From assembly GCA_965197385.1 (NCBI GenBank), contig CBDANA010000008.1, positions 146,155-210,154 on the forward strand: DNA of 64,000 nt. The letters are read 5' to 3'. The notes beneath the pieces were generated by a model. That model saw nothing but the letters and a program-made list of their open reading frames with translations, had not been told where the DNA came from and ran no database searches. This DNA is from Vicinamibacterales bacterium. Lineage in GTDB: Bacteria; Acidobacteriota; Vicinamibacteria; Vicinamibacterales; UBA823. Shown here piece after piece: positions 10,634 through 33,465 of this stretch (the stretch's first letter is position 1; each line of letters begins with the position of its first letter). Made by a program: the position numbers and the translations under genes.

Positions 10634-11025
10634 GGCGACCTCCTCGCTTGTCCACCTCATTTGTCCACGAACCAGGCAACACTAGGCAATACCAGACAAC
10701 ACGAAGACGCAGCAAACCTCTCTGATTCCCTCCAGAATCTGGACAGGGCAACACCAGGCAACACCAGCCGGACTGAGGGACGCAGATGCCCCTCTTCCGC
10801 ACCAACCTTCACTTTCACACTATTTTCTGCATCTTTTCGCACGATCGGTCTTCGATAGCTGACGGATAGCTAACGAACGTGACGCGCCTCCGACCCCGCG
10901 TTGTTACCACTCCCCCCAGCGTCTACAATTGGGCCTGATTTCGGCGCACAACGCAGCAGCCATGCCTCTAGCCCGCGGCACCACGACTGTGTCCGAGGCG
11001 GGGCGGCTCCTACAATAGGCCTCGG

Positions 11026-12228
11026 CAGGTTCAATCGGTCAATGCAACAGCGGTCGCAGTGTATCAGCTGGCGTGGCATATCCCAGCGTCTTGCGTGGAC
11101 GTGAGTTGAGACGTTGCGCGATGGTGTTGAGATCAGCCTGCGTGTAGGTCGAGAGGTTTGTTCCTTTGGGGAAGTATTGCCGCAACAAGCCGTTGGTGTT
11201 CTCGTTCGTACCTCGCTGCCATGGACTCTGCGGGTCGCAGAAGTACACCTTCACGTTCGTGGCGACCGTGAAGCGCTTGTGCGAGGCGAATTCGGTCCCA
11301 CGGTCCCACGTCAGAGACGCCATCAACCCCTTCGGGAGCGTGCGAACGGCGTTGGCCAGCGCCCGCACGACATTGGCGGTGTCTTTGCCAGCCAGACGAA
11401 TCAAGAGCAGGAAGCGCGAGTGGCGCTCGACGAGCGTGGCGATGTATGAGTTGCGAGCCCCGGTCAGTAAGTCGCCTTCCCAGTGGCCGGGCACGGCCCG
11501 ATCCGCTGCCTCCGCCGGACGCTCTCGAATCGAGACGGCGTCGATGATCTGACCACGGCACTGGCCCGCCGTGCTGGCGTGCTTGGACCGACGCATCCGT
11601 CGCCGACGGCGAAGGTGGGCGTTCAGGGCTTTCTTCAGCACCCCGCGACTCTGCACGAAGAGACTGAGATAGATCGTTTCGTGCGACACGTGCAAGCAAG
11701 GATCCTTCGGAAAGGTCCGTTTGAGCCACCCGGCGATCTGCTGTGGGGACCAGTCTGCCGCCAGCTTCTCAGCCACCAGGGCACGGAGCAACGGCGAGAG
11801 GGCGAGCCGACAGGGTTTCGGACGCCGAGTTCGGTCCCAGGCACGCGCGTCGGCAACGGACGCACGGTACTGCCGTCGGCCACCGTTCCGTCGCACCTCC
11901 CGGCTGATCGTCGATGGCGCTCGACTCAGGCGCACGGAGTAGCCCCGGGCCAAGCCCCTGGAGATTTCCTCCCGCTCCGTCAGGGTGAGCGAGCGTCGCG
12001 ACCGGGTCCGTGACGGCGGCGGGATACCCCCACGGGCTGACACGACGTGGTGAACTGCTCCCGGGATCCGACCGAGTGCCCGACCGATGTCGCTGAGCGA
12101 CTCACCTCGCTTCCACCGCTTCCACAGCTCCACCTTCTCTCTTGCTGACATCCGTGGACGACGAACGCGACCCATGATCCCTCCTTGCTGTGATCATTCA
12201 TCGCGTTGCATCGACCCTTTGAACTCAC
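11026..12228 (-). mobile_element. IS30-family insertion sequence (about 1.2 kb)
   Basis: Imperfect terminal inverted repeats GGTTCAATCGGTCAATGCAAC (11028-11048) and GTTGCATCGACCCTTTGAAC (12205-12224). The boundaries are approximate. Confidence 0.75.
11039..12175 (-). CDS. IS30-family transposase
   Basis: HTH domains plus the DDE core (GHWEGDLL, LTWDRGTEF, VYFCDPQSPWQRGTNENTNGLLRQY). Confidence 0.92.
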   Translation of the reverse strand: MGRVRRPRMSAREKVELWKRWKRGESLSDIGRALGRIPGAVHHVVSARGGIPPPSRTRSRRSLTLTEREEISRGLARGYSVRLSRAPSTISREVRRNGGRRQYRASVADARAWDRTRRPKPCRLALSPLLRALVAEKLAADWSPQQIAGWLKRTFPKDPCLHVSHETIYLSLFVQSRGVLKKALNAHLRRRRRMRRSKHASTAGQCRGQIIDAVSIRERPAEAADRAVPGHWEGDLLTGARNSYIATLVERHSRFLLLIRLAGKDTANVVRALANAVRTLPKGLMASLTWDRGTEFASHKRFTVATNVKVYFCDPQSPWQRGTNENTNGLLRQYFPKGTNLSTYTQADLNTIAQRLNSRPRKTLGYATPADTLRPLLH

Positions 12229-12272: not shown

Positions 12273-14192
12273 ATGACTTCCGAGGAGCCGGACAGCGCCC
12301 GCCTGCGAGACCGTCTCTCGCAATGGCTCCGACCGACCGCGTCTCCGCCGACGCGGCTCTCCGCCGCTGTCCTCTGGTCGGCGGCCGCGGCCTTGACGTT
12401 GGCGGCTGCGTACGGCCTGCTGACCTGGCAACTAAGCCGCGGTACCGGCTTGATCCAGACGTTCTTCGACGGGGTGGGTGCCGACCGCAGCCCGCTCGTC
12501 GAGCGAGTCACGCAGACGGTTGATCTAACCATCCTTCACGAGGACGACCGCCTGCCACGTCGTTTCTTCAGCGTGCACTGGCGCGGTGTCTGGCGGATTC
12601 CGAGACGCGGCCTCTACGACATCTCCATTCGTGGCGACGACCGCGTCGTCCTGACAATCGACGGCCACGAGGTTCACACCGACTCGATGGCCGACCCCGC
12701 GGAGAACCCCCGCACCCTGCCCCTCGGTCCCGGCTATCACGCCATCGAGGTGGATTTCGAGCAATACCGCGGCACGTCGGGTCTCCGGGTTGCCTGGGCG
12801 CCCGCTGGAGGCTCTCCTCGGCCCCTGAACTCAGCGAGTCTGTTTCCGGTGGTCCCAACCTATCCGCGTCTCCGCGCCGTGCTCGAGAGCGTTCGGTGGA
12901 TGCTCGGATTCCTTAGCCTGGCTGCGCTGACACTCTCAATCTATCGCAGCGTGCTCGCACTGGCGCTACCGGCGCGGCGACTGATCGAGCAGCGTATCGA
13001 TCCCACCACGACCCGCACGATCAGGCGAATCGTCGCCGCTGGCATGCCGATTCTGATCGTGGCCTATGCGGCGGGCCTTCGGTTCGACGCCATCAGTCTC
13101 AAGTACCCGGTGGACCGCCCGGGCTGGCTGCACACCTTACAGGAGCGTTCCCGCGCCCCACTGGGTGCGCTCCGACCCGAGACGGTCACCTGGGCTCGGA
13201 TCCCGGACCGCCCTCATCGTGACGGGCCACCGAGCCTGTACATCAGCGACCCCTACACCTTCCTGGGGTTCGCAAGGGCGACGCCCCACTTCTATGCCGC
13301 ACACCACCGAGAGCCGGTGTTTCCCTTCGTCACGAAGGTGTTCCTGGGGCTCCTGGACGATCAAGACGTCGCGGTGAGCTTTGCCGCGGCGTTGTTCTCG
13401 ATTCTCGCCGTAGCGGCAACCTATCTCCTGGAGGCCTACGCGTTTTCTCACTGGGTCGATTTGGGCGCGGCGACGCTGCTGGCGATCGAATACAACGTGA
13501 TCTCGGTGGGTGTCGACGGCTGGCGAGACGGTGCGTTGGCGGTCACCATGTTCGCCGCCGCACTGCTCCACCATTCGCGCGTGGCGTCGAAGACGAGCGG
13601 CGTCCTGCTCGGAGTGGTCGCTGCATTCGCCTGTCTCGTCCGGATCACCTCGTTGACGTTCCTGCTGCCCGGCTTCGCTTGCCTGCTGCTCGTCTCGACA
13701 CGCCCATGAAGGGCGCGTCTGAACGGATTTGGTCTGGCCACGGTCACGATGACCGTGATCGTCGCGCCGTATCTAATCAACTGCTGGACCACGTTCGGTG
13801 ACCCCTTGTACGCGATTAACTATCACGCGGAGTACTACGTAGCACGAGATGACCACGTGGTCAATGCTGGTCCGACCGCGTCGTCTTACATGGTGATCAA
13901 GGCGCGCAGCCACGTAATAGAGACCGTGGACACCGTGACGTTGGGTTTGACCAGCCATCCGTTCCTCAACAAGTGGCGCGGGTTCGAGCGGTGGGTCCAG
14001 AATCTGGGCGTCTGGCTGTCGTGGGCCGCGCTGCTAGGCCTGCTCTCGTTCGCCGGCTCCCAGTCCGGCCGGCTGCTGCTGCTCGTGGCCGCCACTTCGC
14101 TCATACCCTACGCGGTCACGTGGCAGATCCTGTCCAGAGTAACGAGATGTGCCAGACGGCGATGCAGGCGAGCAACAGGAGGGTCAGCGTGA
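12273..14192 (+). pseudogene. membrane protein with a PA14-like domain and a GT39/ArnT-like glycosyltransferase region, interrupted by an in-frame TGA
   Basis: ORFs 12273-13709 and 13749-14192 are in the same frame, separated only by TGA at 13707-13709 (..LLVSTRP*RARLNGFGLATVTMTVIV..). PA14-like block FFSVHWRGVW..VVLTIDG..YHAIEVDFEQ. Confidence 0.55.
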
Positions 14193-14587
14193 CGCCCCAG
14201 GCGTATCTCACCCATGGGGTCGGGTGATGGTCGTGGCGAACTGGGGCGGTGGAAGAAGCGACCATGGTGCATGATACCGTGAGTCCTGCTCTGGGCTCGT
14301 ATTCGGCGGGTGCAGCCAGCACACCCAGGCGGCTCCCCAGGGAAGCAGAACTGAGGTCGCCTCCATCGCGACAAGGATGCCGACGATATGATTCGCTCTG
14401 ATTAAGCGGGACCCGAGCGCCACGAATCCTGCTCTGCGTCTCATCACGGGTCTGGTGGCACAGGAATCGCCGAGCCCTGAAGACTCTCGTGCTCGGGCGA
14501 CGATTGGAGGTGGTGCCTGGTCTCTCCCGGACTGTCTTTCAGGGCCAGTCGCGGTGCGTAGCCCCACGGCAGCGGTCGTCCGCGCAG

Positions 14588-17100: not shown

Positions 17101-17595
17101 TCAACACGGAATGTTCCCCTGCGTCGACGACGAGCTCGAGGAAGCTATCGGTCGGCATGTCGAGGCGGGCGGCGGCGCCTGCCTCGTCGACCCTAGCAAC
17201 ATCGATCACCCGCGGCTGCTCCGGCCAAAAGGGCCGACCGAGCGCGGACCGAATCCGGACGTATCGAAATCCGGCGGCGCGCGGCCCAGCCGCCGCCCCG
17301 TAAGGATCGGCGGAGACGACGCGCCGGCTGAATCGAAGCACCACGCGGTTCCAGCCGAGTTCGATGACGGGTTCTGGAAGCTCAATCTCGTACGTGCTCC
17401 AGCCAGATGCCATCTCGACCCGCGCCACGGGCATGCCGTTCAGTTCGACCGACATCAGCTGTCCTGCATCGGACCCCTCGTCGGCCGGCTGCCCCTCGAG
17501 CTCGAACGTGGCGCTGCCGTCGACGCCGACATAGAACCTGAAGCTAGCCCAGTCGCTGACCACCCAGCGCACCGGCTCAGCAGCGTCAGCCGGCC

Positions 17596-19027
17596 GGGGA
17601 TGTCCCAGTAGCTGTTGAAATTTGAAGCGGCGGCTCTTCACTGGTCGTGCTATACGACCGGTGACGAAACCGAGGTGCAAGCCTCCCAGTAAGGAGCCGC
17701 CATGAAGAAGCAGTCTCGCACAGTCCCTCGCCGTCGCCAATCGGTATCCCCGACGCCACGGCACCTTCCGTTGGTCGATATCCTCATTGATACGCAGGCC
17801 GCGCTCCAGGAGCGGGTCGTCGCGTCTGGCCTGAAGGTACTCGAAGCCATGCTGGAAGAGGATCGGGCCGCCGTCTGTGGGCCACGGTATGCGCATCAAC
17901 CTGCGCGCCAGGCGTATCGAACGGGGCATACGCCGAGTCAGGTCGTGCTGGGCGGGCGGAAGGTGGCGATTCGTCGGCCCCGTGCGCGGCGCGCCGGCGA
18001 GGAGGTTCCGTTGCCAACGGCCCGGGCATTCGCGAATGCGGACCCGCTGAACCGGCGCGTGGTCGACCAGATGCTGATCGGTGTGGCGACCCGCCAGTAT
18101 GCGCGGAGTCTGGAACCGCTCGGCGCCGACGTCACCACGCGGGGCACGAGCAAGAGTGCGGTCAGTCGACGCTTTGTCGCGCAAACCCAGGCGCAGCTGG
18201 ATGCGTGGCGGGCGACGCCGCTCGACGCGCTGGACCTGGTGGGGCTGCTGATTGATGGCGTGCACGTGGGTGGACACTGTATCGTTGTCGCCCTAGGCAT
18301 CGATAAAATGGGCGCGAAACACCCGCTCGGCCTGTGGGAAGGGGCCACGGAGAACGCGACGGTCTGTCAGGGGCTCTTGACCAATCTCGGCAGCCGCGGG
18401 CTGCGCACCGACCGGAGCCTGCTGGTGATCGTCGATGGCGCGAAGGCCCTCGACACGGCCGTGACCCAGACATTTGGGCGCGCCGCGCTGGTGCAGCGGT
18501 GTCAGGTCCATAAGGGCCGGAACATCTTGGAGCATCTCCCTGAGGCACAGCGGCCGGGGGTGAAGGCGGTCCTCACGCGCGCCTACACGAACAGCCCCGT
18601 CAAGACGGCCAAGCGTCTGCTGCAGGACCTGGCGCGGCGCTTGGACACTGACTACCCGAGTGCGGCCACGAGCGTGCGGGAAGGGCTCGACGAGACGCTG
18701 ACCGTGCTCGGCTTGGGTCTGTCGGAGCGTCTCCAACGATCGCTCGCCACCACAAACGCCATCGAGAGTCTCCTCAGCCGAACGCGCCATGTGCAGCGCC
18801 ATGTGAAACGCTGGCGCGGCGGGACGATGGTGCTGCGCTGGGTGGCCGCCGGGGTGCTCGAAGCGGCGAAGGGGTTCCGTCGGGTGCAAGGATGTCAAGA
18901 TATGCCCGCGCTGGTCGCTGCCCTCCTGGCACGCGACGCGCGGTTAGGACTCGGGGAGTCGTCAGAGATGGTTGCGTAGTCGTGAACCAAGCTGCCGCTG
19001 AGTTTCAACAGCGCACGGGACATCCCC
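17596..19027 (+). mobile_element. IS256-family insertion sequence, copy 1 (1432 bp)
   Basis: IRs GGGGATGTCCCAGTAGCTGTTGAAA / rc GGGGATGTCCCGTGCGCTGTTGAAA. The flanks are CAGCCGGC(C) and CAGCCGGC(G). Confidence 0.9.
17702..18979 (+). CDS. IS256-family (mutator-type) transposase, intact
   Basis: 425-aa ORF with LLIDGVHVGG..VVALGID, IVDGAKAL and RCQVHK blocks. Confidence 0.92.
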   Translation: MKKQSRTVPRRRQSVSPTPRHLPLVDILIDTQAALQERVVASGLKVLEAMLEEDRAAVCGPRYAHQPARQAYRTGHTPSQVVLGGRKVAIRRPRARRAGEEVPLPTARAFANADPLNRRVVDQMLIGVATRQYARSLEPLGADVTTRGTSKSAVSRRFVAQTQAQLDAWRATPLDALDLVGLLIDGVHVGGHCIVVALGIDKMGAKHPLGLWEGATENATVCQGLLTNLGSRGLRTDRSLLVIVDGAKALDTAVTQTFGRAALVQRCQVHKGRNILEHLPEAQRPGVKAVLTRAYTNSPVKTAKRLLQDLARRLDTDYPSAATSVREGLDETLTVLGLGLSERLQRSLATTNAIESLLSRTRHVQRHVKRWRGGTMVLRWVAAGVLEAAKGFRRVQGCQDMPALVAALLARDARLGLGESSEMVA

Positions 19028-19326
19028 CAGCCGGCGGTCGCATCGCCCAACCGTGGCCCAGAAAGTCTGCGGACTCCGGACCGTGGACGGCACGAGATCG
19101 GTGCTGACAGCGCGGCCGAGCACCGGCACGTAGTCGGCGAACAGCGCCACGGGACGCTCGGGTGTCCCACACGCAGACAGGCTCAGGACCGTCCCCGCAA
19201 CGATCGTTGACACGAACGCCGCCCGCAACGTCCGGCACTCGGTCATCATCCGCATCATTCTAACGCAACGGCTTCGAGCCGGCGCCGAGTCACGGAACGA
19301 AGAACGGTACAATATCTTGAAGGCTC

Positions 19327-20084
19327 TTGTTCGTGCCGCCGACCCCAGATCGCGCTCGATCCTTTTCGCACGAGGTAGCGCTCCGCCCGCCGTTGAAGTG
19401 GGCGGGTGGAAAACGGTGGCTCACGCCCCACCTGCGTCCGCTGTGGGAGCCTCACAGCCGTCGGCGATTGGTCGAACCGTTCTGCGGAGGTCTGGCCGTG
19501 GCGCTCGGACTCGATCCGCGGCGCGCGCTGCTGGTCGACATGAATCCCCACCTGATCAACTTCTACGCCTGGCTGAGCAAGGGACTGCGCATCACGCTGC
19601 CGATGCAAAACGACGAGCGTCTCTTCTACCGGCACCGCCAGCGGTTCAACGACCTTCAGCAGATCGGGAAGAACCGCTCGGCTGAAGCCGCGACGCTATT
19701 CTATTTTCTGAATCGCACCTGCTACAACGGCCTGTGTCGATTCAATCGATCGGGCGAGTTCAACGTGCCGTTTGGACGCTACACACGCATCAACTACACG
19801 AGGGACTTCGCGGCGTATCGGCAGCGGCTGGCCAGATGGACGTTCCGGGTGAGCGACATCGACGATTTGCCGATCCGGCGAGGCGATTTCATCTATGCCG
19901 ACCCGCCGTACGATGTTCCATTCACGCAGTACTCGCAGGGTGGCTTCTCGTGGGAGGATCAGGTCCGCACCGCCGAGCGTCTCGCAAAGCACCCCGGACC
20001 GGTGATCCTGTCGAATCAGGCCACACCGCGCATCAAGAAGCTGTACCGCCGCCTGGGCTTCACGCTCGAACTTCTGAACCTGAA
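19327..20084 (+). pseudogene. dam: DNA adenine methyltransferase (Dam-like, D12 class), 5' body separated from its last 26 codons
   Basis: LKWAGGKRWL, EPFCGGLAV and FIYADPPY motifs. Native sequence ends at CTGAA 20080-20084, and the ORF then reads into foreign DNA up to 20160. Confidence 0.8.
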
Positions 20085-20245
20085 AGATCAGGATCGCCCC
20101 ACGGAGTACGTAGTGGGGACCCCTGAGTTGCCTCCCCGGCGATTTCTTGCGCGTGGCTGACGCTGAGCGCCATCGACAGGCAAGCGATCAAGGTCACGAG
20201 GCTTCGTGATGACTCGAATCTTTGATGACCCATCCGGTCGCACCA

Positions 20246-22594
20246 TCACTGGAGGATGTCGAAGAGCTGCGTGTATTTCAGCGTGAGGGTCCGCCCTGCG
20301 GCACTGGGCATGGCGCTGCCGATACCACGAGTGTCGTTATACACGAGGAACAGGCCGGTGTTGGCCTGCTGCAGCCAGGCGAGCCGCAGATTCGCCGACC
20401 ACAGATCCGCTCGGTCGTTGTACTGAATCAAAGTCTGAAGGGATATGCGGGGCGAGAACGAATAGGAGATTCTCGCTCGAGCAAGATTCGTGACGAAGCT
20501 GCCGCCAAGAATATCAATGTCGTTGCGGCTCAAGCCGAACTCGGTATTGAGCGTCTCACCCACGCGAAACCGGACCGTCGGGGTCATGGCCACCCGATCA
20601 CCCCCGAAGAAGCCACCGATCGTCGTGCGCACGCTGAAGCTCAACGGGGCGCCTTGATTGGTCATGACCACCAGCTGCGCTTCCATGTGGTCGTACGTGC
20701 CGGGCGGCACGACCACATCCGGAAAGATCTCGAACGAATCCACCACGCCTTCGCGCGTGATGTTCATGCCCGTGTGTACTTCAGTGCCGTCCGGCCACTC
20801 CCAGTGATTATCGATGTGGGTGCGGCCCGTCTCCTGAAACCCTTCGAAATCCCAAAAGCCGTTGAAGCCGACGTGCGGGCGTAGCTCGTGTAGGCCGAAA
20901 AAATCCTCAGGCCGATACGCGTACTGGACCCTTCCTCCGACGGAGCGGAACTCCGTTCGCGTCAAGAACCCAACTTCCGGATTGAAGTTCTCTGCCACCT
21001 CGGAGTAGCTGAGGCTCGCCTCCCACGCCTGGGAGGAGTAGGCCGAGTTCAGGCCGTAGGCGTACTCGTTCCCCCTCAAGTCTGGTGTCTGACTCCGAGC
21101 CATGAATCCGTTTATAGACCCGTCCTGACCGATTCCAATACGACCATCCACGGCGTAGGTTTGATTGTGATCGCTGTCGCCCGCCAAGCGACCCGTCGCA
21201 GAACGATTGACGAAGATTGCGCCGACGTTTGAGCGATTTCCAAGGTCCTTCCGAACGCGCGCCACGGTGAAGTTATTGGCGGCGACCGGGTCGTCCGGTT
21301 CGTCGACCGTGTCGGTTTGCATGTTGAGGAACCCGACATTGAAGCCGTTGCCCACCTGACCCGACAGCCGTCCGCCGCCCACGATGGGAATCACTTCGCC
21401 CTCGGGCCCGATACCGATACGCCGGCTGAAGAAGATCTCGGTCTGACCTGGGTTCCCAACCGTGAACAGCCCGGCGTTCTCGAGGAAGAACGGTCGCTTT
21501 TCAGGAAAGAACAAGTTGAAGCGGTTCAGGTTAACCTGCTGCTCGTCGACCTCGACCTGAGCGAAATCGGTGTTATAGGTTGCGTCCAACGTCAATGCGG
21601 GTGTGATGCTGTACTTCAGGTCCGTCCCGAAGTCGCCGGTCCAGTCGTCGAGGCGGGGCCTGGAGGTGGTGGCGTTTTGTCGCAGGCGTCCGCTGAGCAC
21701 GTACGGCGTGATTTTCAGGTTGCGCTGGGCCGGTACTTCGAGCCCCGACAGCCGTCCCGCCATCGAGAGGCGATACAGACCGTACTGTCGCGGCAGCGGG
21801 GCCCAGAACGCGGTCTCATTGTTTCGCCGAATATTGCGCTGGAAGTTCATACTCCAGGTTTGCGATTGTCCGGACGGATACCGAATCGTGCGAAACGGAA
21901 TAGCGAACTCCGCGCTCCACCCGATCTCCGAGACCTGCGTCGCGACCTGCCACGAGCCGTCCCAGTTGAGGTTGAAGCCGCCCCCAGCGCCGCCCTGAGT
22001 ACGCCCGCCGCCACTCCCAAACCGGCCGCCACCTTGCCCTTCGTTCACGAGCTGGCCGTCGAACTCCAGTCCGGCCGGGTTGGTGCCAAAGACGAAACCG
22101 TTTTGCTGGTCGAGATAGGTGTCGAGGACGATCTGAAAGCTGTCAGTGTCGTCCAGTGACGAATCCCGTCGACTGTCCGACATGATGATGCCATTGGGAT
22201 CCGTGTCGAAGCAGACGACGCCAAAATACAGGGTGTCCTCGGTGTAGACGATTCGAACCTCCGTCCGCTGCGTCGCAGGCTGCCCCTCGTCTGGCCGGGT
22301 CTGCCGAAAGCCAGTCGCAGGCTCCGCGCTCAACCAGGTTGGGTCATCTACGACGCGCCCGTCCAACACTGGCGGCCCCGCGACGCGGACCGCTAGCGCG
22401 ACCGGAACACTGAGAGACAAGCCTTGGGCCTCTTCAGAGTCAGCGTCCCCGGACTGCGCAACCGCCTCGCCTCCGACGAGCACCAGACCTCCGAACGCCA
22501 GAGCGGAAATCACGGCCGCGGACATCACGCTTCGCACGAACCTACCGAACAACGCTATGAGCAACACCGCTTTCCCCCTGAAATCATCAGTCAC
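20246..22594 (-). CDS. DUF5916-type outer-membrane protein with a CBM9-like N-terminal domain (passenger gene)
   Basis: Signal peptide, DTDSFQIVLDTY..NGFVFGTNP..NWDGSW..GWSAEFAIPF block, and a long beta-rich C-terminal region. Confidence 0.7.
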   Translation of the reverse strand: MTDDFRGKAVLLIALFGRFVRSVMSAAVISALAFGGLVLVGGEAVAQSGDADSEEAQGLSLSVPVALAVRVAGPPVLDGRVVDDPTWLSAEPATGFRQTRPDEGQPATQRTEVRIVYTEDTLYFGVVCFDTDPNGIIMSDSRRDSSLDDTDSFQIVLDTYLDQQNGFVFGTNPAGLEFDGQLVNEGQGGGRFGSGGGRTQGGAGGGFNLNWDGSWQVATQVSEIGWSAEFAIPFRTIRYPSGQSQTWSMNFQRNIRRNNETAFWAPLPRQYGLYRLSMAGRLSGLEVPAQRNLKITPYVLSGRLRQNATTSRPRLDDWTGDFGTDLKYSITPALTLDATYNTDFAQVEVDEQQVNLNRFNLFFPEKRPFFLENAGLFTVGNPGQTEIFFSRRIGIGPEGEVIPIVGGGRLSGQVGNGFNVGFLNMQTDTVDEPDDPVAANNFTVARVRKDLGNRSNVGAIFVNRSATGRLAGDSDHNQTYAVDGRIGIGQDGSINGFMARSQTPDLRGNEYAYGLNSAYSSQAWEASLSYSEVAENFNPEVGFLTRTEFRSVGGRVQYAYRPEDFFGLHELRPHVGFNGFWDFEGFQETGRTHIDNHWEWPDGTEVHTGMNITREGVVDSFEIFPDVVVPPGTYDHMEAQLVVMTNQGAPLSFSVRTTIGGFFGGDRVAMTPTVRFRVGETLNTEFGLSRNDIDILGGSFVTNLARARISYSFSPRISLQTLIQYNDRADLWSANLRLAWLQQANTGLFLVYNDTRGIGSAMPSAAGRTLTLKYTQLFDILQ

Positions 22595-22731
22595 GCCGTC
22601 TGAAACGCCCGGTGCCCCGTCGGCGCAAAGCGGGGCCTGGGCCTCCGAAGTGGCCGTTCCTATGAAGCCGCAAATGGCAGAGTAGGCCGATGACGAGGCA
22701 GCCGCCCAGCTATTGTGGATGCCAACTCTAA

Positions 22732-24392
22732 CCCGGGATTTTCATTTTGCCTGTCCCGGATGGCACCGTTATACACCCGACCGCCGCCGAGCGCACGAAA
22801 TTCTGTTCGTCGCACAATCGTCCAGCTCCAGAGACTGTCACTCAGCCCGCGCTGACGTGCGACCGACTGGAGCCGCTGTTTTCACGGCATTTCTCAGACA
22901 CTGGTCCACACGTGCGCCGTTTCTTCGCCGGAGTTCCTCGGGAAGCGGTCGCCCGCTATCCTCCCGGCACGGGCAGCGCCCAGATCCTCCGCAGCATGTC
23001 GCCGAACAGCCGACGGGTCAGATGCCCTTCTGCCAGCAGGAGCCAGTAGTCCCTGGCATGCTTCACCAGCCGGCCTCCGGTTTTCACCAGCCGCTGCTGG
23101 AGACTCGTGAGCGACCAGCGCGTGACCCGCGGCGGCAGGACCCATCTGCGCCAGAGGTTGCCCAGGTTGTAGGCCAGGACACTCAGTTGCAGGCGCACTT
23201 CGTTCGCCCGGAACCGAGGGCACGACAGCCGCGTCCAGTGGGTGGCCTGCTTGCCTTCCTTGATCCATTGCTCCGCCGTGCCGCGCTTGTTGTAGAACCG
23301 TACGACCGAGCGGCTCGGGAGGGCCATCTTGGTCACGATGAAGCCGACGCGCGGGAACAGCTCCCCTCGGTGGTGCTCCACCTTGGCGACAATCCGTCTG
23401 GGCGTGGTCCAGCTCTTCGCCTGATAGCGGAAACTCTTGTAGCGCACCAAGGGCTTGCGGCTCGGCCGTCCCGGCGGACGAAAGAGGAGGGCTTCGATTT
23501 CCAGCTCCACGCTCTTGTTCGCCGGCATGCGGATGACATAGTCCACGTCGCGCGTCTCGAGCGCGTCGTAGATCTCCGGCTTGGCAAACGCCGCGTCCGC
23601 GCGGAACGCCACGCGCGTACCCTCCGCCTGCTGCCGGTCAATTTCCGGCACGAGCAGGTCGTCCCAATCGTCGGCGCTATGCACGTTGCCGGGCCGCAGC
23701 GGGGCGGCCACGCAGTCGCCGTGCTCGTTGAACAGAAACAGCGGGTGGTAACAGACTGATTCAAAGTGCCCGTTGTACGCGCTCCCTTCCTGCGCCCCAT
23801 GCACCGGGCTCTCACTCGAATCCATGTCGAGCACAATCCGGCCGGCGCGCGTTGGCATCTCAGCCTGTGCGAGCACCTCCCGGTTCACGGCCATCAGCCC
23901 GACGAGCTTCTCCTCTCGGGTCAGCAGCTCAGTCTCGAACCAGTGCAGCGGCGAGGTCAGCGCGCCACCGCGGTCCCAGAGCGTTGGCGCCCCGATGAGA
24001 CGAAACGTCGGGTCCGCCGACACGCGCACCGCATCGTTCAGGTCTTCGTAGCCCGCGAGCCGGCTGTAGACCGACTGTCGCAGGAGATCCGCCAGGCTGA
24101 ACTGGGTGTGCAAGCCCTGTCGGGAGTCGCTCAGGTGCTCGGCGATGAGTGTCGCCAGCCCCAGGCGTTCATCCAACTCGCGCACCAAAAGGAGACCGGC
24201 GTCGGAGGTGATGCGCGACCCCTGGAATGCGACCTTCAGAAAGCCATTGAACGTGAACTGAAACGCCTCGTGCTGTCATTCACCCACAGGGTGTCACCCT
24301 CCGTGGCGGGGTTCCTTGCGTCGGAGCCCCGGAAATCAAGGCGCGGCGACTGGCCTGCCGATACGGTACCACAGCCAAATCGGAAATCCGGG
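22732..24392 (-). mobile_element. IS1380-family insertion sequence (1661 bp)
   Basis: Inverted ends CCCGGGATTTTCATTTTGCCTGT (22732..) and rc CCCGGATTTCCGATTTGGCTGT (..24392). Confidence 0.8.
22956..24257 (-). CDS. IS1380-family transposase (no canonical in-frame start found)
   Basis: RITSDAGLLLVRELDERLG, DMDSSESPVHGAQEGSAYNGHFESVCYHPLF and LRPGNVHSA blocks. The frame is open from 24257 back to a TGA, but the only nearby ATG (24279) is in another frame. Confidence 0.8.
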   Translation of the reverse strand, partial: FTFNGFLKVAFQGSRITSDAGLLLVRELDERLGLATLIAEHLSDSRQGLHTQFSLADLLRQSVYSRLAGYEDLNDAVRVSADPTFRLIGAPTLWDRGGALTSPLHWFETELLTREEKLVGLMAVNREVLAQAEMPTRAGRIVLDMDSSESPVHGAQEGSAYNGHFESVCYHPLFLFNEHGDCVAAPLRPGNVHSADDWDDLLVPEIDRQQAEGTRVAFRADAAFAKPEIYDALETRDVDYVIRMPANKSVELEIEALLFRPPGRPSRKPLVRYKSFRYQAKSWTTPRRIVAKVEHHRGELFPRVGFIVTKMALPSRSVVRFYNKRGTAEQWIKEGKQATHWTRLSCPRFRANEVRLQLSVLAYNLGNLWRRWVLPPRVTRWSLTSLQQRLVKTGGRLVKHARDYWLLLAEGHLTRRLFGDMLRRIWALPVPGG

Positions 24393-24470
24393 CTGAAGGC
24401 GCCGCGGCTCATCAGCTGCACCGGCCGCCGCGTGCCGGCCACCGAGGTCCTGGCAATCAAGAATCTCTAG
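24393..24470 (+). pseudogene. dam: detached 3' end of dam (LKAPRLISCTGRRVPATEVLAIKNL*)
   Basis: Reads in frame from the CTGAA duplicate. The sequence is a typical Dam C-terminal tail, and the stop TAG lies inside a CTAG. Confidence 0.7.
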
Positions 24471-24483
24471 CAGCCCGTGGTGA
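24471..24483. repeat. solo terminal fragment of the MITE-like element (copy D)
   Basis: CTAG|CAGCCCGTGGTGA, then unrelated sequence. Confidence 0.5.
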
Positions 24484-24511
24484 CGGCACGTCGGAACTTC
24501 CCGCCGCTATA

Positions 24512-25675
24512 ATGCGGCGGATGTCTGTCTCAGTCGGCCTTCAACACCTCGCGGCCTCCGGCCGCCTCGCCGGCCAGCGTGTCGGCCTGGTCTGCAATCC
24601 CGCGTCGATCGACAATCAGTTGACCCACGCGACGGACCGGATCGCAGTGCTTCCTAAGACTCGCCTGACTGCCCTGTTCGGTCCGCAGCACGGGTTTCAG
24701 TCCGATCGGCAGGACGACATGATCGAGACGCCGCACGCGCGAGATGCCGCGCGAGGCGTTCCGGTCTATTCGCTTTACAGCGAGACGCGCACGCCCACGG
24801 CCGGAATGCTGCGGGATCTGGACGTGTTGGTCGTCGACCTGCCAGATGTCGGAACGCGCGTGTACACCTATGCCTACACGATGGCGAATTGCCTGCGGGC
24901 CTGCCGCGAGCACGGTGTGCCGGTCGTCGTCACAGACCGGCCGAACCCAATCGGCGGAGTTGGGGTGGAAGGCCCCCTGCTCGATCCGTCATGCGCGTCG
25001 TTCGTCGGCCAGTTTCCGGTTCCCCTGCGCCACGGCCTAACGATCGGCGAGCTGGCCCGGCTCTTCAACGACGAGTTCGGCATCGGCGCAAGCCTCGAGG
25101 TCGAGCCGATGACGGGATGGCAACGGCCGATGCACTTCGACGAGACGGGCTTGCCCTGGGTCTTGCCGTCGCCGAACCTGCCCACGCTGGACAGCCTCCT
25201 CGTCTATCCGGGCATGGTGCTGCTGGAGGGAACGAATCTCTCCGAGGGGCGCGGAACGACGCGACCCTTCGAGCTGTTCGGCGCGCCCTGGCTGGACGGC
25301 GCCCGGCTGGCGGAGCGCCTGAACGACACCGGGCTGCCCGGCGTACGTTTTCGCCCGGTCGGGTTCGAGCCGACGTTCCAAAAGCACGCGAACACCGCCT
25401 GCGGCGGATGCCAAATCCATATACGCGATCGACGCGCGTTCCGCCCGGTCCGCACGGCGCTCGCCGTCCTGGACGCCTGCCGCGACGCAGACCCCGAGCG
25501 CTTCGCCTGGCGTCAGCCGCCGTACGAATACGAGCACGACCGGATGCCGATCGATGTGCTGTGGGGATCGGACGCGCTCAGGCGCTCTGTCGAAGCCGGA
25601 GCGCCGCTGCTGAACGTGCTCCGGGAGCCGTCCGAGGATTTTCTGGAACTGCGCGCGCGGTACCTGCTGTATTGA
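24512..25675 (+). CDS. DUF1343 family protein (NamZ-like exo-beta-N-acetylmuramidase)
   Basis: FGPQHGF, VVDLPDVGTRVYTY, DRPNP, LPSPNLPT and LSEGRGTTRPFE blocks. Confidence 0.8.
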   Translation: MRRMSVSVGLQHLAASGRLAGQRVGLVCNPASIDNQLTHATDRIAVLPKTRLTALFGPQHGFQSDRQDDMIETPHARDAARGVPVYSLYSETRTPTAGMLRDLDVLVVDLPDVGTRVYTYAYTMANCLRACREHGVPVVVTDRPNPIGGVGVEGPLLDPSCASFVGQFPVPLRHGLTIGELARLFNDEFGIGASLEVEPMTGWQRPMHFDETGLPWVLPSPNLPTLDSLLVYPGMVLLEGTNLSEGRGTTRPFELFGAPWLDGARLAERLNDTGLPGVRFRPVGFEPTFQKHANTACGGCQIHIRDRRAFRPVRTALAVLDACRDADPERFAWRQPPYEYEHDRMPIDVLWGSDALRRSVEAGAPLLNVLREPSEDFLELRARYLLY

Positions 25676-25682
25676 GGGGCTT

Positions 25683-26477
25683 CTACAGGCAGTGCCGGAT
25701 CAGGTGGTCGCGCAAGTGCTCGAACGCCGCACCCGGATCGTCGGTGCGATGAATCGCCTTCAGATCGCGCTTCGAGATGGCGCCCCAGTCGACGAGCGGC
25801 TGCAGGTTTAGGATCTGGTCCCAGTAGTCACGGCCGTACAGCACGACCTCGGTCTTCGTCGAGATCCTTCGGGTCTGCGCCAGCGTCAGGAACTCGAATA
25901 CCTCGTCCAGCGTCCCGAACCCGCCCGAGAAAATGACGAGCGCCTTGGCCAGGTACGCGAACCAGAACTTCCGCATGAAGAAGTAATGGAACTTGAAATG
26001 CAGGTCGTCGCTAATGTAGCGGTTCGGCCGCTCTTCGAAGGGCAGACTGATCGTCAACCCGATCGTCTTGCCGCCGGCCTCGTGCGCGCCGCGATTGGCC
26101 GCCTCCATGATGCCGGACCCGCCACCGGAGCAGACGACGAATCGATGGCGCGGCTTGTCCAAGCCCTGGCTCCAGTCGGTCAGCCGCCGGGCGAGCTCAC
26201 GCGCCTCCTCGTAGTAGCGTGACCAGGCCACCGCCTGGCGGCAGCGGCGCAACCGTTCGGCGCGCTTCGGGGATCGGGCCTGCTCGCGCTTGAGCGCCTG
26301 CGTCGCCCGACGCTGGCTGTCGACCCGCGCCGAGCCGAAGAACACGACCGTGTCCTCGATCTGCTTTTCCTCGAATCGCTTCAGCGGCTCGAGATACTCC
26401 GACAGGATGCGGAGCGGGCGCCCTTCGTCACTCGCCAGAAACTCCGGCATGAGATAGGCGGGGCGTGGCTCGGCCAT
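25683..26477 (-). CDS. LOG-family (TIGR00730) nucleotide phosphoribohydrolase
   Basis: GGGSGIMEAANRGA and PGGFGTLDEVFE-like motifs (FSGGFGTLDEVFE). ATG at 26477; codons further upstream lie in the IS5 end. Confidence 0.8.
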   Translation of the reverse strand: MAEPRPAYLMPEFLASDEGRPLRILSEYLEPLKRFEEKQIEDTVVFFGSARVDSQRRATQALKREQARSPKRAERLRRCRQAVAWSRYYEEARELARRLTDWSQGLDKPRHRFVVCSGGGSGIMEAANRGAHEAGGKTIGLTISLPFEERPNRYISDDLHFKFHYFFMRKFWFAYLAKALVIFSGGFGTLDEVFEFLTLAQTRRISTKTEVVLYGRDYWDQILNLQPLVDWGAISKRDLKAIHRTDDPGAAFEHLRDHLIRHCL

Positions 26478-26507
26478 ATGCCAGCACTCTATCATTCGCA
26501 GCCCTAG

Positions 26508-27802
26508 CAGGCTGCTAAAAAAGTCCATGGAATGGGATCGACAGATCGATCCCGGCGTACTCCCATGCTCCCAATATTGCTGAAGGGAGCCACCTCATGC
26601 GCGGACACGATGAGCAGACCCATCACATGTTCAGTTACCGGTCGCCGGAACAGCGCGTGCCGGCCGATCCTCCGCTCCGCGCGGTCCGCGCGCTGACGGA
26701 TCACGCGCTGAAGACGATGTCGCGCAGGTTCGCCGGCCTGTACGCCAAGACGGGACGTCCGTCGATCCCGCCTGAGCCATTGTTGCGGGCCCTGTTGCTG
26801 CAGGTGCTGTACACGATCCGGAGCGAACGGCTGCTGCTGGAAGAGCTCAACGACAACCTGCTGTTCCGCTGGTTCGTCGGCTTGCATATGGACGACCCGG
26901 TCTGGCATCCCACGACGTTTACCAAGAATCGTGACCGGCTGCTGGCGGGGGATGGCGCGGCCGCCTTCGTTGATGCGGTCCAGGCCCACGCCCGGGCGGC
27001 CGGTCTGCTCTCGGACGAGCATTTCACGGTGGACGGGACGCAGTTGGAAGCCTGGGCCAGCCTGAAGAGCTTCCGATGCCGGGACGCCGCGCCGCGCGCG
27101 CCCCCCGATGACCCCGGGAATCCCACGGTCGACTTCCACGGCGAGCGGCGGCGCAACGACACGCACCAGTCGACGACTGATCCGGCGGCGATGCTGCATC
27201 GGAAGGGCCAAGGGAAGGAGGCGAAGCTGGCGTCTCTGGGCCACGTGCTGTTGGATAATCGGCAGGGGCTCGTCGCCAACGTCTGTGCGACCCACGCGAC
27301 GGGGACCGCCGAACGCGAGGCGGCGGCACTGTTGCTGGAGGCCAGCGCGCCGCCGGGCAGCACGGTCGGAGCAGACAAGGGCTACGATGTGGCGAGCTTC
27401 GTCGCCGATGTCCGCGTCCGGGACGTCACGCCCCACGTGGCGCAGAAGGTCCGCTGGCGGGCGATTGATGGTCGGCCCACCCGGCATGCGGGTTCTCACG
27501 TGAGTCAGCGGAAACGAAAACTCGTGGAACAGGTCTTTGGGTGGAGGCAGACCGTCGGTGGTTTGCGCAAGCTCCGGCCTCGCGGCGTCCCACTCGTCGA
27601 GTGGCAGCTCACTTTCGCCGCCACGGCCTATAACTTGGTCCGCCTGCGGAATCTGGAGGCGACGTGTCCCTGCTCGCCGGCCGCGCGTGTCGCCGGCCCC
27701 CTCATCGGGGTCAGCGCACACCCGTGCGCACGGTCGTCGGGCGGTCGTTACCCGCATGATGCTTAAGAAAACAGCCCGATACCCGGGTTCTTCAGCAGCC
27801 TG
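26508..27802 (+). mobile_element. IS5-family insertion sequence (1295 bp) with a CTAG target duplication
   Basis: Ends CAGGCTGCTAAAAAAGTCC / rc CAGGCTGCTGAAGAACCC. CTAG at 26504-26507 and 27803-27806. Confidence 0.88.
26597..27766 (+). CDS. IS5-family DDE transposase
   Basis: InsH-type N-terminus (GRPSIPPEPLLRALLLQVLY..FRWFVGL) and a DDE region (VGADKGYD.., AYNLVRL). Confidence 0.9.
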   Translation: MRGHDEQTHHMFSYRSPEQRVPADPPLRAVRALTDHALKTMSRRFAGLYAKTGRPSIPPEPLLRALLLQVLYTIRSERLLLEELNDNLLFRWFVGLHMDDPVWHPTTFTKNRDRLLAGDGAAAFVDAVQAHARAAGLLSDEHFTVDGTQLEAWASLKSFRCRDAAPRAPPDDPGNPTVDFHGERRRNDTHQSTTDPAAMLHRKGQGKEAKLASLGHVLLDNRQGLVANVCATHATGTAEREAAALLLEASAPPGSTVGADKGYDVASFVADVRVRDVTPHVAQKVRWRAIDGRPTRHAGSHVSQRKRKLVEQVFGWRQTVGGLRKLRPRGVPLVEWQLTFAATAYNLVRLRNLEATCPCSPAARVAGPLIGVSAHPCARSSGGRYPHDA

Positions 27803-27956
27803 CTAGAGCCTGGGGTGAGACAACCTGGCATGCAGGGGCGTGCAACGCTGTGAGCAGCCTTTGACTCCGCGCATCCGAGCCGGTACCATCGGGCGCTTGC
27901 GCCGGTCCACGGACGCCCCGTCCAAACTGAACCGGCCGCGCTCGACCGGACGATGA

Positions 27957-28185
27957 AGCCACTCGATCTCACTCGCGCTCGCCATCTCCGCCGCGTGGCG
28001 ACAATTCCTGAATCCGTACGGCACTAGCGTTGCCGTGGACGGTCGGGGCGTCCACGGCGGTGGTATCGAGTGGACGATCAAGGACGGCGTGCCGTATCAC
28101 GTGCCAACCTTGATGGCAGAGGTCCGCGACATGGTCAATGAGGCGCGCGCCGCCGAACGCGGCCGGGTCACAGCCGGACAGCCCT
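27957..28185 (+). pseudogene. possible C-terminal remnant of an amidohydrolase-type gene
   Basis: Frame 0 reads ..GGGIEWTIKDGVPYHVPTLMAEVRDMVNEAR..*. There is no start codon, and the frame is bounded upstream by a stop at 27954. Confidence 0.3.
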
Positions 28186-31391: not shown

Positions 31392-31581
31392 GGTATCGTC
31401 AGGTTACCGTACACCGCGGCTCGCGATGCCTGACGAGCTTGCGCGAACGTCAACCAGGCATCGGTAGAGTCGAGGACGGGCGCGGGCGCGGTAGGCCTGG
31501 GGAGTCGCAGTAGCCGGCGGCTTTCGCAGAACGCCGGTGCCTCAATCCAGGCCATGGCGCCGTTTCCCGTCCCCGCTCATC

Positions 31582-31614
<33 letters not shown>

Positions 31615-31630
31615 TCCGACTGGTTTCACA

Positions 31631-33016
31631 TCAAGACACACGCACCACGCCACGAGGCAGCGCACGCAGCCGCAGGACTCCGAGTGACCCGAAGACCTGC
31701 TCAGCGGCGAAGCGCCGGGTGCCGCGCGTCGGCACCTTGTGGCGTCGGCTGAGGAAGTGCCGCACGGCTTGGTAGACGTAGTGGTCAACCGCGCGATAGA
31801 CCGGCGCCCGCGTGCCGTAGCTGAAATACATCCCCCAGCCACGGAGCAGGCGGTTGAGCCCATCGCCCACCTCGGCCCACGGGCCCTGATTCCCAGGGCG
31901 CAGCCGCGCACGCACGGCGGCTTTGACCCGCTGGACGCTCTTGGTCGACGGCGCTGCGACCAGATACCAGCGGCCATTCGACCGGTACCGTCGCCACCCA
32001 AAGGTATAGCCCAGAAAGTCGAATGCCTCGCGATGCGCGTGTCGGACACACGTTTTGGTGTCGTTCAGGGTCAGCTTCAGGTGGCCCATCGCCCACCGGG
32101 TCCACGCCAGCGCTTCCGTGGCGTGCCCACGGCTGAGGATGACAAAGTCATCCGCGTAGTTGATGAGCCGCGCCTGAAACTGGTCGCCCTTCCCGCGAGT
32201 TCGCCAGACCCGAAGAAAGCGATGCCTGTAAATATTGGCGAGGAGCGGACTGGTGACCCCGCCTTGCGGCGTGCCTCGTGTGGTCCGTTTCCCGCCACTC
32301 ATGCGTCGCCGACCTCGCGCATCCCGCTCCTCGACCGGCACCTTCAGCCAGTTTTTGAGGAGCCGCAACATCGCCCCGTCGGCCACACGGCGCGCGACGT
32401 TCTGCAGCAGCTCCTGATGCGGGATCGTGTCGAAATACTTCGACAGGTCCGCGTCCACCACCTCGGTGTAGCCCGCGCACAGCGCGCGATGCACCTCCTG
32501 GACCGCTGCCTGGGCGCTTCGGTTCGGCCGATAGCCATACGCACTGGCTTCGAACCCCGCCTCAAAGACCGGTTCCAGCACCAGCTTGGTGGTGGTTTGC
32601 ACCACCAGGTCCCGAATCGTCGGAACCCCCAGTGGTCGCTCCCCCCCCGCCCGGCTTGGGAAGTAGAACCCGGCGCACCGGGTTCGGTCGATACGTCTTC
32701 GCCTGCAGCGTCCTCCTCAGGTCCGCCAGCCACGCTTCCACGCCTGCTGCCTCGATGTCAGCGAAGGCAACCCCATCGACCCCCGGTGCCCCCGCCGCCG
32801 CGCGGGAGAGGCGATAGGCGTGCGCCAGGATGTCTTCGCGATGCACCTTGTCATACAGGGCATAGAAGCGAAACCGCGGGGCTTGCTTCGCCTTGATGTA
32901 GAGTTTCCGCTGGAGCCGCCGAACACGATCAAGAGTCCGTCAGGCTCACGCCAATCCCCCAGTCCTTGGCTCGGTAGGAAGCACCCAGAAGTGAGGCCCC
33001 TTCCCTCCCCCGGCAT
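31631..33016 (-). pseudogene. group II intron reverse transcriptase/maturase in three frame segments
   Basis: Segments: LQRKLYIKAKQAPRFRFYALYDKVHREDIL..GAPGVDG | ERPLGVPTIRDLVVQ..YADDFVIL..maturase. The breaks are at the C8 run 32641-32648 and near 32930. Confidence 0.8.
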
Positions 33017-33465
33017 TACCCGGGTTCCGCAGTACTATGGGCCTCTCCGACGCCCACGCCGGCCGGCCCCCGAGGGGCCGTTGCGCATCGCGACCGCGCA
33101 CCGCACATGGGCCTCCCACGTTGCCCGGAGCACCGTGCGCACGTGCCGTTCCCACTACCCCGGTGGACTCCACACCTTGCGTCGGTTGCTGCGGGCGTGG
33201 ATGACAGCCTTCCCCGGTATACCGGCGGGTCGGCGTCCACATTGGTACTTTCGAGGCCTGCTCAGGATTCACTCGCGTTACGGCCCGTGAACTTGCTAAC
33301 CTCCCCGAAGGAGGCATTGTCCCTGCCGCTTCGGCGGTCGCCCGCCGGGCAGGCAGCTACTGCGTCGAATCGACAATTACGCAGGTGGATCTTTCATCCA
33401 CTGGTCCTCCGCGCCTTTCGTGGCGCACGGTATACTCCCCCCCGACTGGCTCTCCAGAGAACGCG

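Follow-up and report, generated by a model that had tools for sequence, protein, structure and literature searches.

A gene for a Dam-family DNA methyltransferase is split in two in a 64,000-nucleotide stretch of an acidobacterial genome, that of a Vicinamibacterales bacterium (GenBank assembly GCA_965197385.1, contig CBDANA010000008.1, positions 146,155 to 210,154 of the forward strand). We refer to this whole stretch as the window. The two parts of dam are separated by DNA that contains an insertion sequence (IS) of the IS1380 family, with an inverted repeat at its left end (IRL) and another at its right end (IRR), and a piece of passenger DNA that carries a gene of the DUF5916 family. Here we describe this locus, compare it with related loci that lack the insert or the IS, and consider how the present arrangement arose. 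The features are collected in Table 1; L and P numbers denote the contigs and the proteins or copies used for comparison.

Table 1. Features of the interrupted dam locus (positions in the window)
Feature	Position	Strand	Basis and remarks
dam-family methyltransferase gene, 5′ part	19327..20078	+	PF02086, TIGR00571; colinear with dam of L001 up to 20078; protein alignment
Left target-site duplication, CTGAA	20074..20078		Empty site in L001 with one CTGAA; both flanks in the window align over it
Surrogate right end (IRalt)	20079..20092	-	IS strand ..CCTGATCTTTCAGG; homology to L005, L007 and L008 ends exactly here, and those loci continue natively
Passenger DNA, 2654 bp	20079..22732	-	One complete gene with ~165 nt on either side; 98.5% identical to L005, L007 and L008
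DUF5916 gene	20246..22525	-	759 aa from ATG 22525; frame open to GTG 22594; PF19313
Pentamer GTTAG (IS strand) beside IRR	22728..22732	-	Native in L005; fits YTWAR
IRR, CCGGGATTTTCATTTTGCCTGTCC (read inward)	22733..22756	+	17 of its 24 positions match IRL; related copies have the same ends
IS1380-family insertion sequence, 1660 bp	22733..24392	-	Ends from ~60 related copies
Transposase gene	22956..24287	-	NF033539 transpos_IS1380, PF13701; GTG start 24287-24285
IRL, CCCGGATTTCCGATTTGGCTGTGG	24369..24392	-	Directly adjoins the right copy of the duplication
Right target-site duplication, CTGAA	24393..24397		Alignment with L001
Displaced dam 3′ end	24393..24470	+	Last 24 codons, KAPRLISCTGRRVPATEVLAIKNL, and stop, in frame

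An interrupted dam gene and its empty site

The upstream part of dam contributes 250 native codons and 2 nt. From there the reading frame continues through 27 alien codons to a stop at 20158-20160. The product of this open reading frame (ORF) has the catalytic motif DPPY (ADPPYD), matches PF02086, and scores 177.4 bits against TIGR00571, for which the cut-off is 114.85. After the displaced 3′ end of the gene comes namZ, which begins at 24512. An initial annotation of this DNA had noted that the tail of dam (24393-24470) is in frame and abuts one end of the IS, and that the DUF5916 gene lies between the other IS end and the 5′ part of dam. Both points held up: the IRL ends at 24392, and the DUF5916 gene occupies 20246-22525, or 20246-22594 with an alternative start, on the minus strand.

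The best matches of Dam, like those of the IS, suggest that the host is probably a Vicinamibacterales-type acidobacterium. The closest Dam homologues led us to syntenic contigs. On one of them, L001 (ENA ERZ25766727, 544 kb), a sulfatase gene, dam, namZ, and a LOG-like gene follow each other in the same order as in the window; dam is intact, and namZ comes directly after it. BLASTN matched positions 19028-20078 of the window to L001 9554-10608 and positions 24393-26499 to L001 10604-12718. The 5 nt by which these two matches overlap are the single CTGAA of L001 (..GAATTCCTGAAGGCGCCG..). Three further contigs, L002-L004, have an intact dam as well, and none of the four carries either an IS or a DUF5916 gene at the dam site. 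The initial annotation had allowed that relatives might have a DUF5916 gene at this position without any IS; these relatives give no example of it.

The alignments fix the junctions between 20078/20079 and 24392/24393. They give an insert of 4314 bp (20079-24392), made up of the 1660-bp IS and the 2654-bp passenger, in place of the block of 4308 bp (20085-24392) that had been proposed before; the correction comes from L001 and from L005, a contig that carries the passenger without an IS. The pentamer that served as target, CTGAA, falls in codons 250-251 of dam, here a chromosomal orphan gene. At the junctions CTGAA occurs three times, starting at 20074, 20080, and 24393. The right copy of the duplication had been placed correctly at 24393-24397, whereas the left copy is 20074-20078 and not, as first thought, 20080-20084, a difference of 6 nt. 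The chance of a 5-nt duplication at the junctions is ~1/1024; this figure applies because the homology breakpoints fix both junctions independently.

The additional pentamer is a separate matter. Alignment to the IS-free L005 shows that donor-type DNA begins at 20079 (CCTGAAAG...), and the CTGAA at 20080-20084 is donor DNA within the insert, native to that locus. Since the first bases of the insert (C-CTGAA, 20079-20084) repeat the target pentamer, three copies are found at the junctions. The repetition may be fortuitous (at this offset, chance alone would produce it in ~1 in 1000 cases), or the surrogate end may itself contain a sequence that resembles a target.

We then removed the insert in silico and aligned the restored Dam with 11 homologues that are 65-89% identical. 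Deletion of 20079-24397 yields ..LELLKAPR.., colinear with all 11 homologues (..LEFLKAPR..). Deletion of 20085-24397, the check suggested by the initial annotation, leaves two extra residues (..LELLNLKAPR..) that occur in 0 of 11. The correctly restored protein reads ..LELLKAPRLISCTG.. and aligns with residues 14 to 271 of E. coli Dam (4rtj), junction included. Its alignments to TIGR00571 and NF008152 also run across the junction. Conservation is evident in the 24 lost residues (APRxISCTGxRxPAxEVL, two of whose prolines are invariant), which correspond in the alignment to the C-terminal segment of E. coli Dam. The homologue and E. coli alignments thus agree with the earlier claim that Dam has lost its native C terminus: the current ORF does not contain the complete conserved C-terminal segment, which lies 4.3 kb away, and has 27 alien residues instead. 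Because these conserved residues are gone, the window Dam is probably inactive; its GATC specificity and activity are themselves putative. For annotation, dam is here a split pseudogene.

An IS without a duplication of its own

The terminal repeats of the IS are too imperfect for an automated repeat search. We located them by hand and confirmed them with related copies, which were found by scanning GTDB genomes with an 18-mer of the IRL (>100 loci). About 60 complete related copies, 78-90% identical at the nucleotide level and found in metagenome-assembled genomes (MAGs) of Vicinamibacterales and "Ca. Acidiferrales," align from 22733 to 24392. The element is therefore 1660 bp long, and its inner end is 22733 rather than 22732, where the initial annotation had put it. 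Both IRL and IRR start with CC. The transposase scores 349.7 bits against NF033539 transpos_IS1380 (cut-off 180) and matches PF13701 DDE_Tnp_1_4 with an E value of 2e-113.

Perfect 5-bp duplications flank 35 of the 59 distinct complete related copies, with the consensus YTWAR. Both CTGAA/TTCAG and GTTAG fit this consensus. In the window, the IS is bordered by TTCAG at its IRL and by GTTAG at its IRR. Since these differ, the IS alone has no duplication; it is the IS and the passenger together that are enclosed by one. This bears out the initial annotation, which had described a single transposition unit with a 5-bp duplication. A copy on L004 that is 88% identical to the window IS has GTAAA on both sides. 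This copy (L004 5910-7574) lies in a sulfatase gene, 2.4 kb upstream of dam.

An element of this family is also abundant elsewhere. The contigs L014-L112 (CBDFHE01, a "Ca. Acidiferrales" MAG) carry >40 copies of this IS1380-family element, each of 1670 bp and nearly identical to the others, a copy number that indicates a marked IS expansion. Matching duplications are absent at many of these copies, which suggests extensive IS-mediated rearrangement or further transposition units.

The passenger and its IS-free counterparts

A homologue of the DUF5916 protein of the window, P0121 (98% identical), led us to L005. Over exactly 20079-22732, the passenger corresponds at 98.5% identity to L005 9827-12480, to L007 5836-8489, and to L008, three metagenome contigs that are free of the IS at this locus. 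Where the window has the IRR, the sequence of L005 is ..GATTACT|GTTAGAGTTGG.., uninterrupted by an IS; at the outer end of the passenger it reads ..GATCTTTCAGG|AATCTGGACG... The three contigs have 4042 bp in common at 99.6% identity, and 1357 bp of this lies beyond the outer end of the passenger. These contigs show the passenger to be an inner segment of a locus that occurs free of the IS. One boundary of the segment coincides exactly with the IRR; the other, ~165 nt past the stop codon of its gene, is at an otherwise unremarkable position.

Next to the IRR stands the pentamer GTTAG. It is presumably one copy of a duplication that arose upstream of the gene when the donor first received the IS. 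GC content is ~60-61% in the passenger, 65-68% in the flanks, and ~61% in dam. As a mark of foreign origin it is not decisive, given that dam itself is at ~61%.

Origin of the insert

Taken together, we consider it highly probable that the IS1380-family element and the adjacent 2.65 kb moved into dam as one transposition unit that reached from the IRL to a surrogate end. Four things were observed directly: the arrangement itself, the empty site, a passenger locus without the IS, and the habit of this family of making 5-bp duplications. They point to one-ended, or IRR-skipping, transposition because the duplication brackets the whole unit and because the passenger lies 3′ of the transposase gene (tnp), with its gene transcribed in the same direction. 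The initial annotation had already recognized this position of the passenger, past the IS end that follows the transposase stop codon.

We infer an earlier insertion in the donor and the transposition event itself, which may have proceeded as follows. The IS would first have inserted at GTTAG, ~165 nt upstream of the DUF5916 gene, in a donor replicon. The transposase would then have taken the true IRL, passed over the true IRR, and used instead a weakly similar sequence, ..CTTTCAGG, 2654 bp further on and ~165 nt past the stop codon of the gene. The resulting 4314-bp unit, consisting of IRL, tnp, IRR, the DUF5916 gene, and the surrogate end, would have entered the CTGAA of dam and doubled these 5 bp. 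Such an event would have left Dam without its last 24 conserved residues and with 27 alien ones, and would have given the genome a copy of a putative outer-membrane CBM9/beta-barrel gene. The IS in the window would now rely on an internal start or on transposase from other copies.

Of the alternatives, the one that fares best is a two-step process. The IS would have entered dam alone, and recombination between IS copies, a rearrangement, or an IS-adjacent deletion would later have placed the DUF5916 segment between the IRR and the 5′ part of dam. Other copies of this IS variant exist in the genome (P0371, on the same contig), the region is full of IS elements, and 24 of the 59 complete relatives have no perfect duplication, so IS-mediated rearrangement is plausible as such. 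However, recombination between IS copies swaps the flank on the IRR side and leaves unexplained why the far end of the passenger meets the 5′ part of dam exactly at the duplicated CTGAA; a second breakpoint would be required precisely at the duplication. We regard this route as very unlikely.

Another possibility is that a different mechanism brought the DUF5916 segment into dam before the IS inserted at its border. The gene does seem to be mobile in some way, with its coding sequence present at 97-98% nucleotide identity in at least three unrelated contexts. But a later IS insertion would have produced its own 5-bp duplication, and TTCAG differs from GTTAG. Of the two CTGAA copies that form the duplication, one adjoins the IRL and the other the far end of the passenger, and the passenger starts exactly at the IRR, as if the IS had already been adjacent to it in the donor. 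This order of events is hardly credible. An artefact of assembly, in which dam was joined to a repeat that contains an IS to give a chimeric contig, is equally hard to credit: the contig is metagenome assembled, and IS elements are classic sites of misassembly, but a chimera would not give a precise 5-bp target duplication at both outer junctions, nor would it leave the two parts of dam separated by 4.3 kb yet equally oriented and in frame, between flanks of perfect synteny. Jointly, these three explanations retain a small share of the probability.

Transposition as a unit therefore remains the reading that we prefer, and several points weigh against it. The donor anticipated by the initial annotation, an IS1380 element beside the DUF5916 gene without dam flanks, was not found in the GTDB genomes, metagenome contigs, and reachable ENA contigs that we searched, the rest of the genome of the window being outside this scope. 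Among the loci found with the IRL 18-mer in GTDB genomes, none was >90% identical to the window IS and none had the passenger attached. A scan of the metagenome contigs with 18 nt spanning the junction of IRR and passenger returned one unrelated chance match, on L120. No IS1380 element stood beside the gene in the contexts of near-identical DUF5916 genes (L005-L008, L118, and L119) or in that of a 99%-identical transposase (L117). Of 14 positions in the surrogate end, 7 agree with the IRR, and its last bases are GG, but 36 other positions in the passenger match equally well or better and likewise have a terminal GG. Because so many sites are as good, the sequence of this end adds no independent support; its similarity to the IRR is not above background, and we rejected it as separate evidence. 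With a stop at codon 4 of its transposase gene, this copy has no obvious means of moving by itself. A consensus scan detected no sigma-70-like outward promoter in the 3′ end of the IS, acidobacterial promoters being outside such a scan, and a promoter and terminator scan of the whole unit returned nothing usable; expression of the cargo driven by the IS is a candidate effect only. The structure is also known from a single assembled contig, and the probable inactivity of Dam is a prediction.

A transposase variant with an early stop codon

Codon 4 of the transposase gene is TGA (24278-24276), compared with TTA in related copies on L004, L013, L015, and L022. The transposases of these relatives start GTG GGT GAA TTA CAG.. 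and are 443 aa long. The other 439 codons of the window copy are open, but it does not have the intact frame of an autonomous element; the next in-frame starts after the TGA are TTG 24188 and GTG 24185.

We found a copy that is 99.3% identical (11 differences in 1660 nt) on L117 (9794-11453), at an unrelated locus in another sample. It has the same TGA at codon 4. The stop is therefore not a sequencing error, and the TGA variant has moved since it gained the stop, either in trans or from an internal start. The L117 copy is flanked by CTACG and CGAAT, without a simple duplication. Downstream of it there are six candidate CTACG sequences for the boundary of a second unit, with no empty site to choose among them. 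Cluster tables list further copies of the variant: P0371, on the same 1.05-Mb contig as the window, and P0372, on a contig of 1.19 Mb, perhaps from the same genome.

These data raise a speculative possibility, which we think unlikely, that the TGA variant is still spreading and is perhaps unusually prone to skip its own IRR, so that it would be a natural hyper-capturing form of IS1380. The idea comes from the two 99.3%-identical copies at unrelated loci in different samples, together with the further copies in the genome of the window. The notion of IRR skipping comes from the duplications: 0 of 2 readable TGA copies have a simple 5-bp duplication, against 35 of 59 copies with an intact start. 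If this were true, the variant, with a shortened transposase made from an internal GTG or TTG or with mobilization in trans, would be moving chromosomal genes in soil Acidobacteriota.

The DUF5916 cargo

The cargo protein scores 88.7 bits against PF19313, well above the gathering threshold of 22.6. Its match to CBM9_1, at 15.9 bits, is below the threshold of 23.4. The AlphaFold2 model (mean predicted local distance difference test score of 64) is all beta, with a long run of antiparallel strands. In a Foldseek search, this model matched the CBM9 structure 1i82 with a template modeling (TM) score, TMt, of 0.68 and an E value of 8e-6, and the LptD, PapC, and MtrB barrels at low TM scores of 0.25-0.34. 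The N terminus resembles a signal peptide. It is a reasonable prediction that the cargo is an outer-membrane protein with a CBM9-like domain and a large beta-barrel. Where P0121, a homologue of 770 aa, has its ATG start, the window has ATA (22556-22558, minus strand), which leaves as the start either the next ATG, at 22525, for a protein of 759 aa, or the upstream GTG at 22594.

The DUF5916 coding sequence (20236-22570) occurs at 97-98% nucleotide identity in at least three unrelated genomic contexts, represented by L005, L006, L007, L008, L118, and L119. Between context types, homology ends 10 nt past the stop codon. On the 5′ side, all contexts have the short motif TCGATTACTG..TAGAG, which contains the IS donor site GTTAG. 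Loci of type A have ~150 nt extra upstream of the ATG, and on L118 and L119 an N-terminal fragment of a Ser/Thr kinase lies directly beside the gene or is joined to it in a fusion. The DUF5916 gene seems to have been relocated repeatedly by some route.

Other features of the window and its relatives

The neighborhood of dam contains further mobile elements. Upstream, an IS256-like element (~17595-19027; Transposase_mut, transposase gene at 17702-18979) has inverted repeats GGGGATGTCCC and an 8-bp duplication, CAGCCGGC. It interrupts the sulfatase gene, which is intact in the syntenic L001. On the other side, an IS5/IS1182-like element (~26506-27808; transposase gene at 26597-27766, with DUF772 and DDE_Tnp_1) has an apparent CTAG duplication and adjoins the LOG-like gene; it is not present in L001. 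Also missing from L001 is a group II intron at 31465-33428 on the minus strand. Its ORF (31634-32605) encodes a reverse transcriptase with a maturase domain (PF00078 and PF08388), and the intron matches the Rfam families RF02003 (33273-33403) and RF00029 (31504-31616). Conversely, ~1.3 kb of L001 (12927-14253), in an amidohydrolase gene (12926-14434), has no counterpart at 28005/28006 of the window, which suggests a deletion in the window or an insertion in L001. In L002, an IS630-like element lies directly after dam (10750-11689).

Comparison with known systems

The capture of an adjacent gene by an IS1380-type element is seen here from comparative evidence alone: an empty site, a passenger locus free of the IS, and a duplicated target. 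ISEcp1 with blaCTX-M is the best-known case of this mechanism. In the present case it concerns the chromosome of an uncultured soil acidobacterium, an ordinary gene for an envelope protein, and an orphan Dam that was probably knocked out. The case lends weight to the idea that this mechanism relocates genes generally, beyond the setting of resistance. The practical value is mainly in annotation, where dam should be read as a split pseudogene and the DUF5916 gene as mobile cargo.

For ISEcp1, both the 5-bp duplications and one-ended capture are documented (PMC12589106). Its surrogate IRRs match the true end at 3-12 of 14 bases and have a 3′ G (PMC12116815). The surrogate end in the window, with 7 of 14 matches and a 3′ G, is within this published range. 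The likeness to the ISEcp1 (ISEc9) blaCTX-M units of Enterobacterales goes further. There is an IS1380-family transposase in an element of ~1.66 kb; an IRL is combined with a surrogate IRR further downstream, which is weakly related to the true one and has G as its last base; the passenger is found past the IS end that follows the tnp stop codon and runs in the direction of tnp; and the 5-bp duplication surrounds the whole unit rather than the IS. The differences lie in the setting and in the element. Here the host is an uncultured Vicinamibacterales-like acidobacterium, and the cargo is a DUF5916/CBM9-like putative outer-membrane protein rather than a resistance gene. The target consensus is YTWAR, in a genome of 65% GC, and the transposase has a stop at codon 4. 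An outward promoter in the window IS would be a candidate feature, and the transposition of the unit is deduced from the comparison of sequences.

Adjacent DNA is also captured at one end by IS91/ISCR elements and by Tn3-family elements such as Tn2, which read past or replace one of their ends (PMC12589106). The unit in the window resembles them in this respect. IS91/ISCR elements, however, use rolling-circle transposases of the HUH type, whereas the window has a DDE transposase of the IS1380 family and a 5-bp duplication.

ISPme1 and IS1247a, both of the IS1380 family, form "transposable modules" (TMos) in environmental Paracoccus, in which one IS copy mobilizes 3′-adjacent nonresistance DNA of variable length by means of a misrecognized terminal structure (PMC9330008). 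The initial annotation had stressed cargo unrelated to resistance in an environmental bacterium. The DUF5916 gene is indeed such a cargo, but the novelty was overstated in view of the Paracoccus elements (PMC9330008). Environmental IS1380 modules were described in 2008-2009, and the finding is not conceptually new. As in the TMos, a single IS1380-family copy moves 3′-adjacent nonresistance DNA. Unlike them, the unit described here belongs to another phylum; the TMos were trapped experimentally on plasmids, whereas the event in the window was deduced by comparative genomics, is chromosomal, and disrupts dam.

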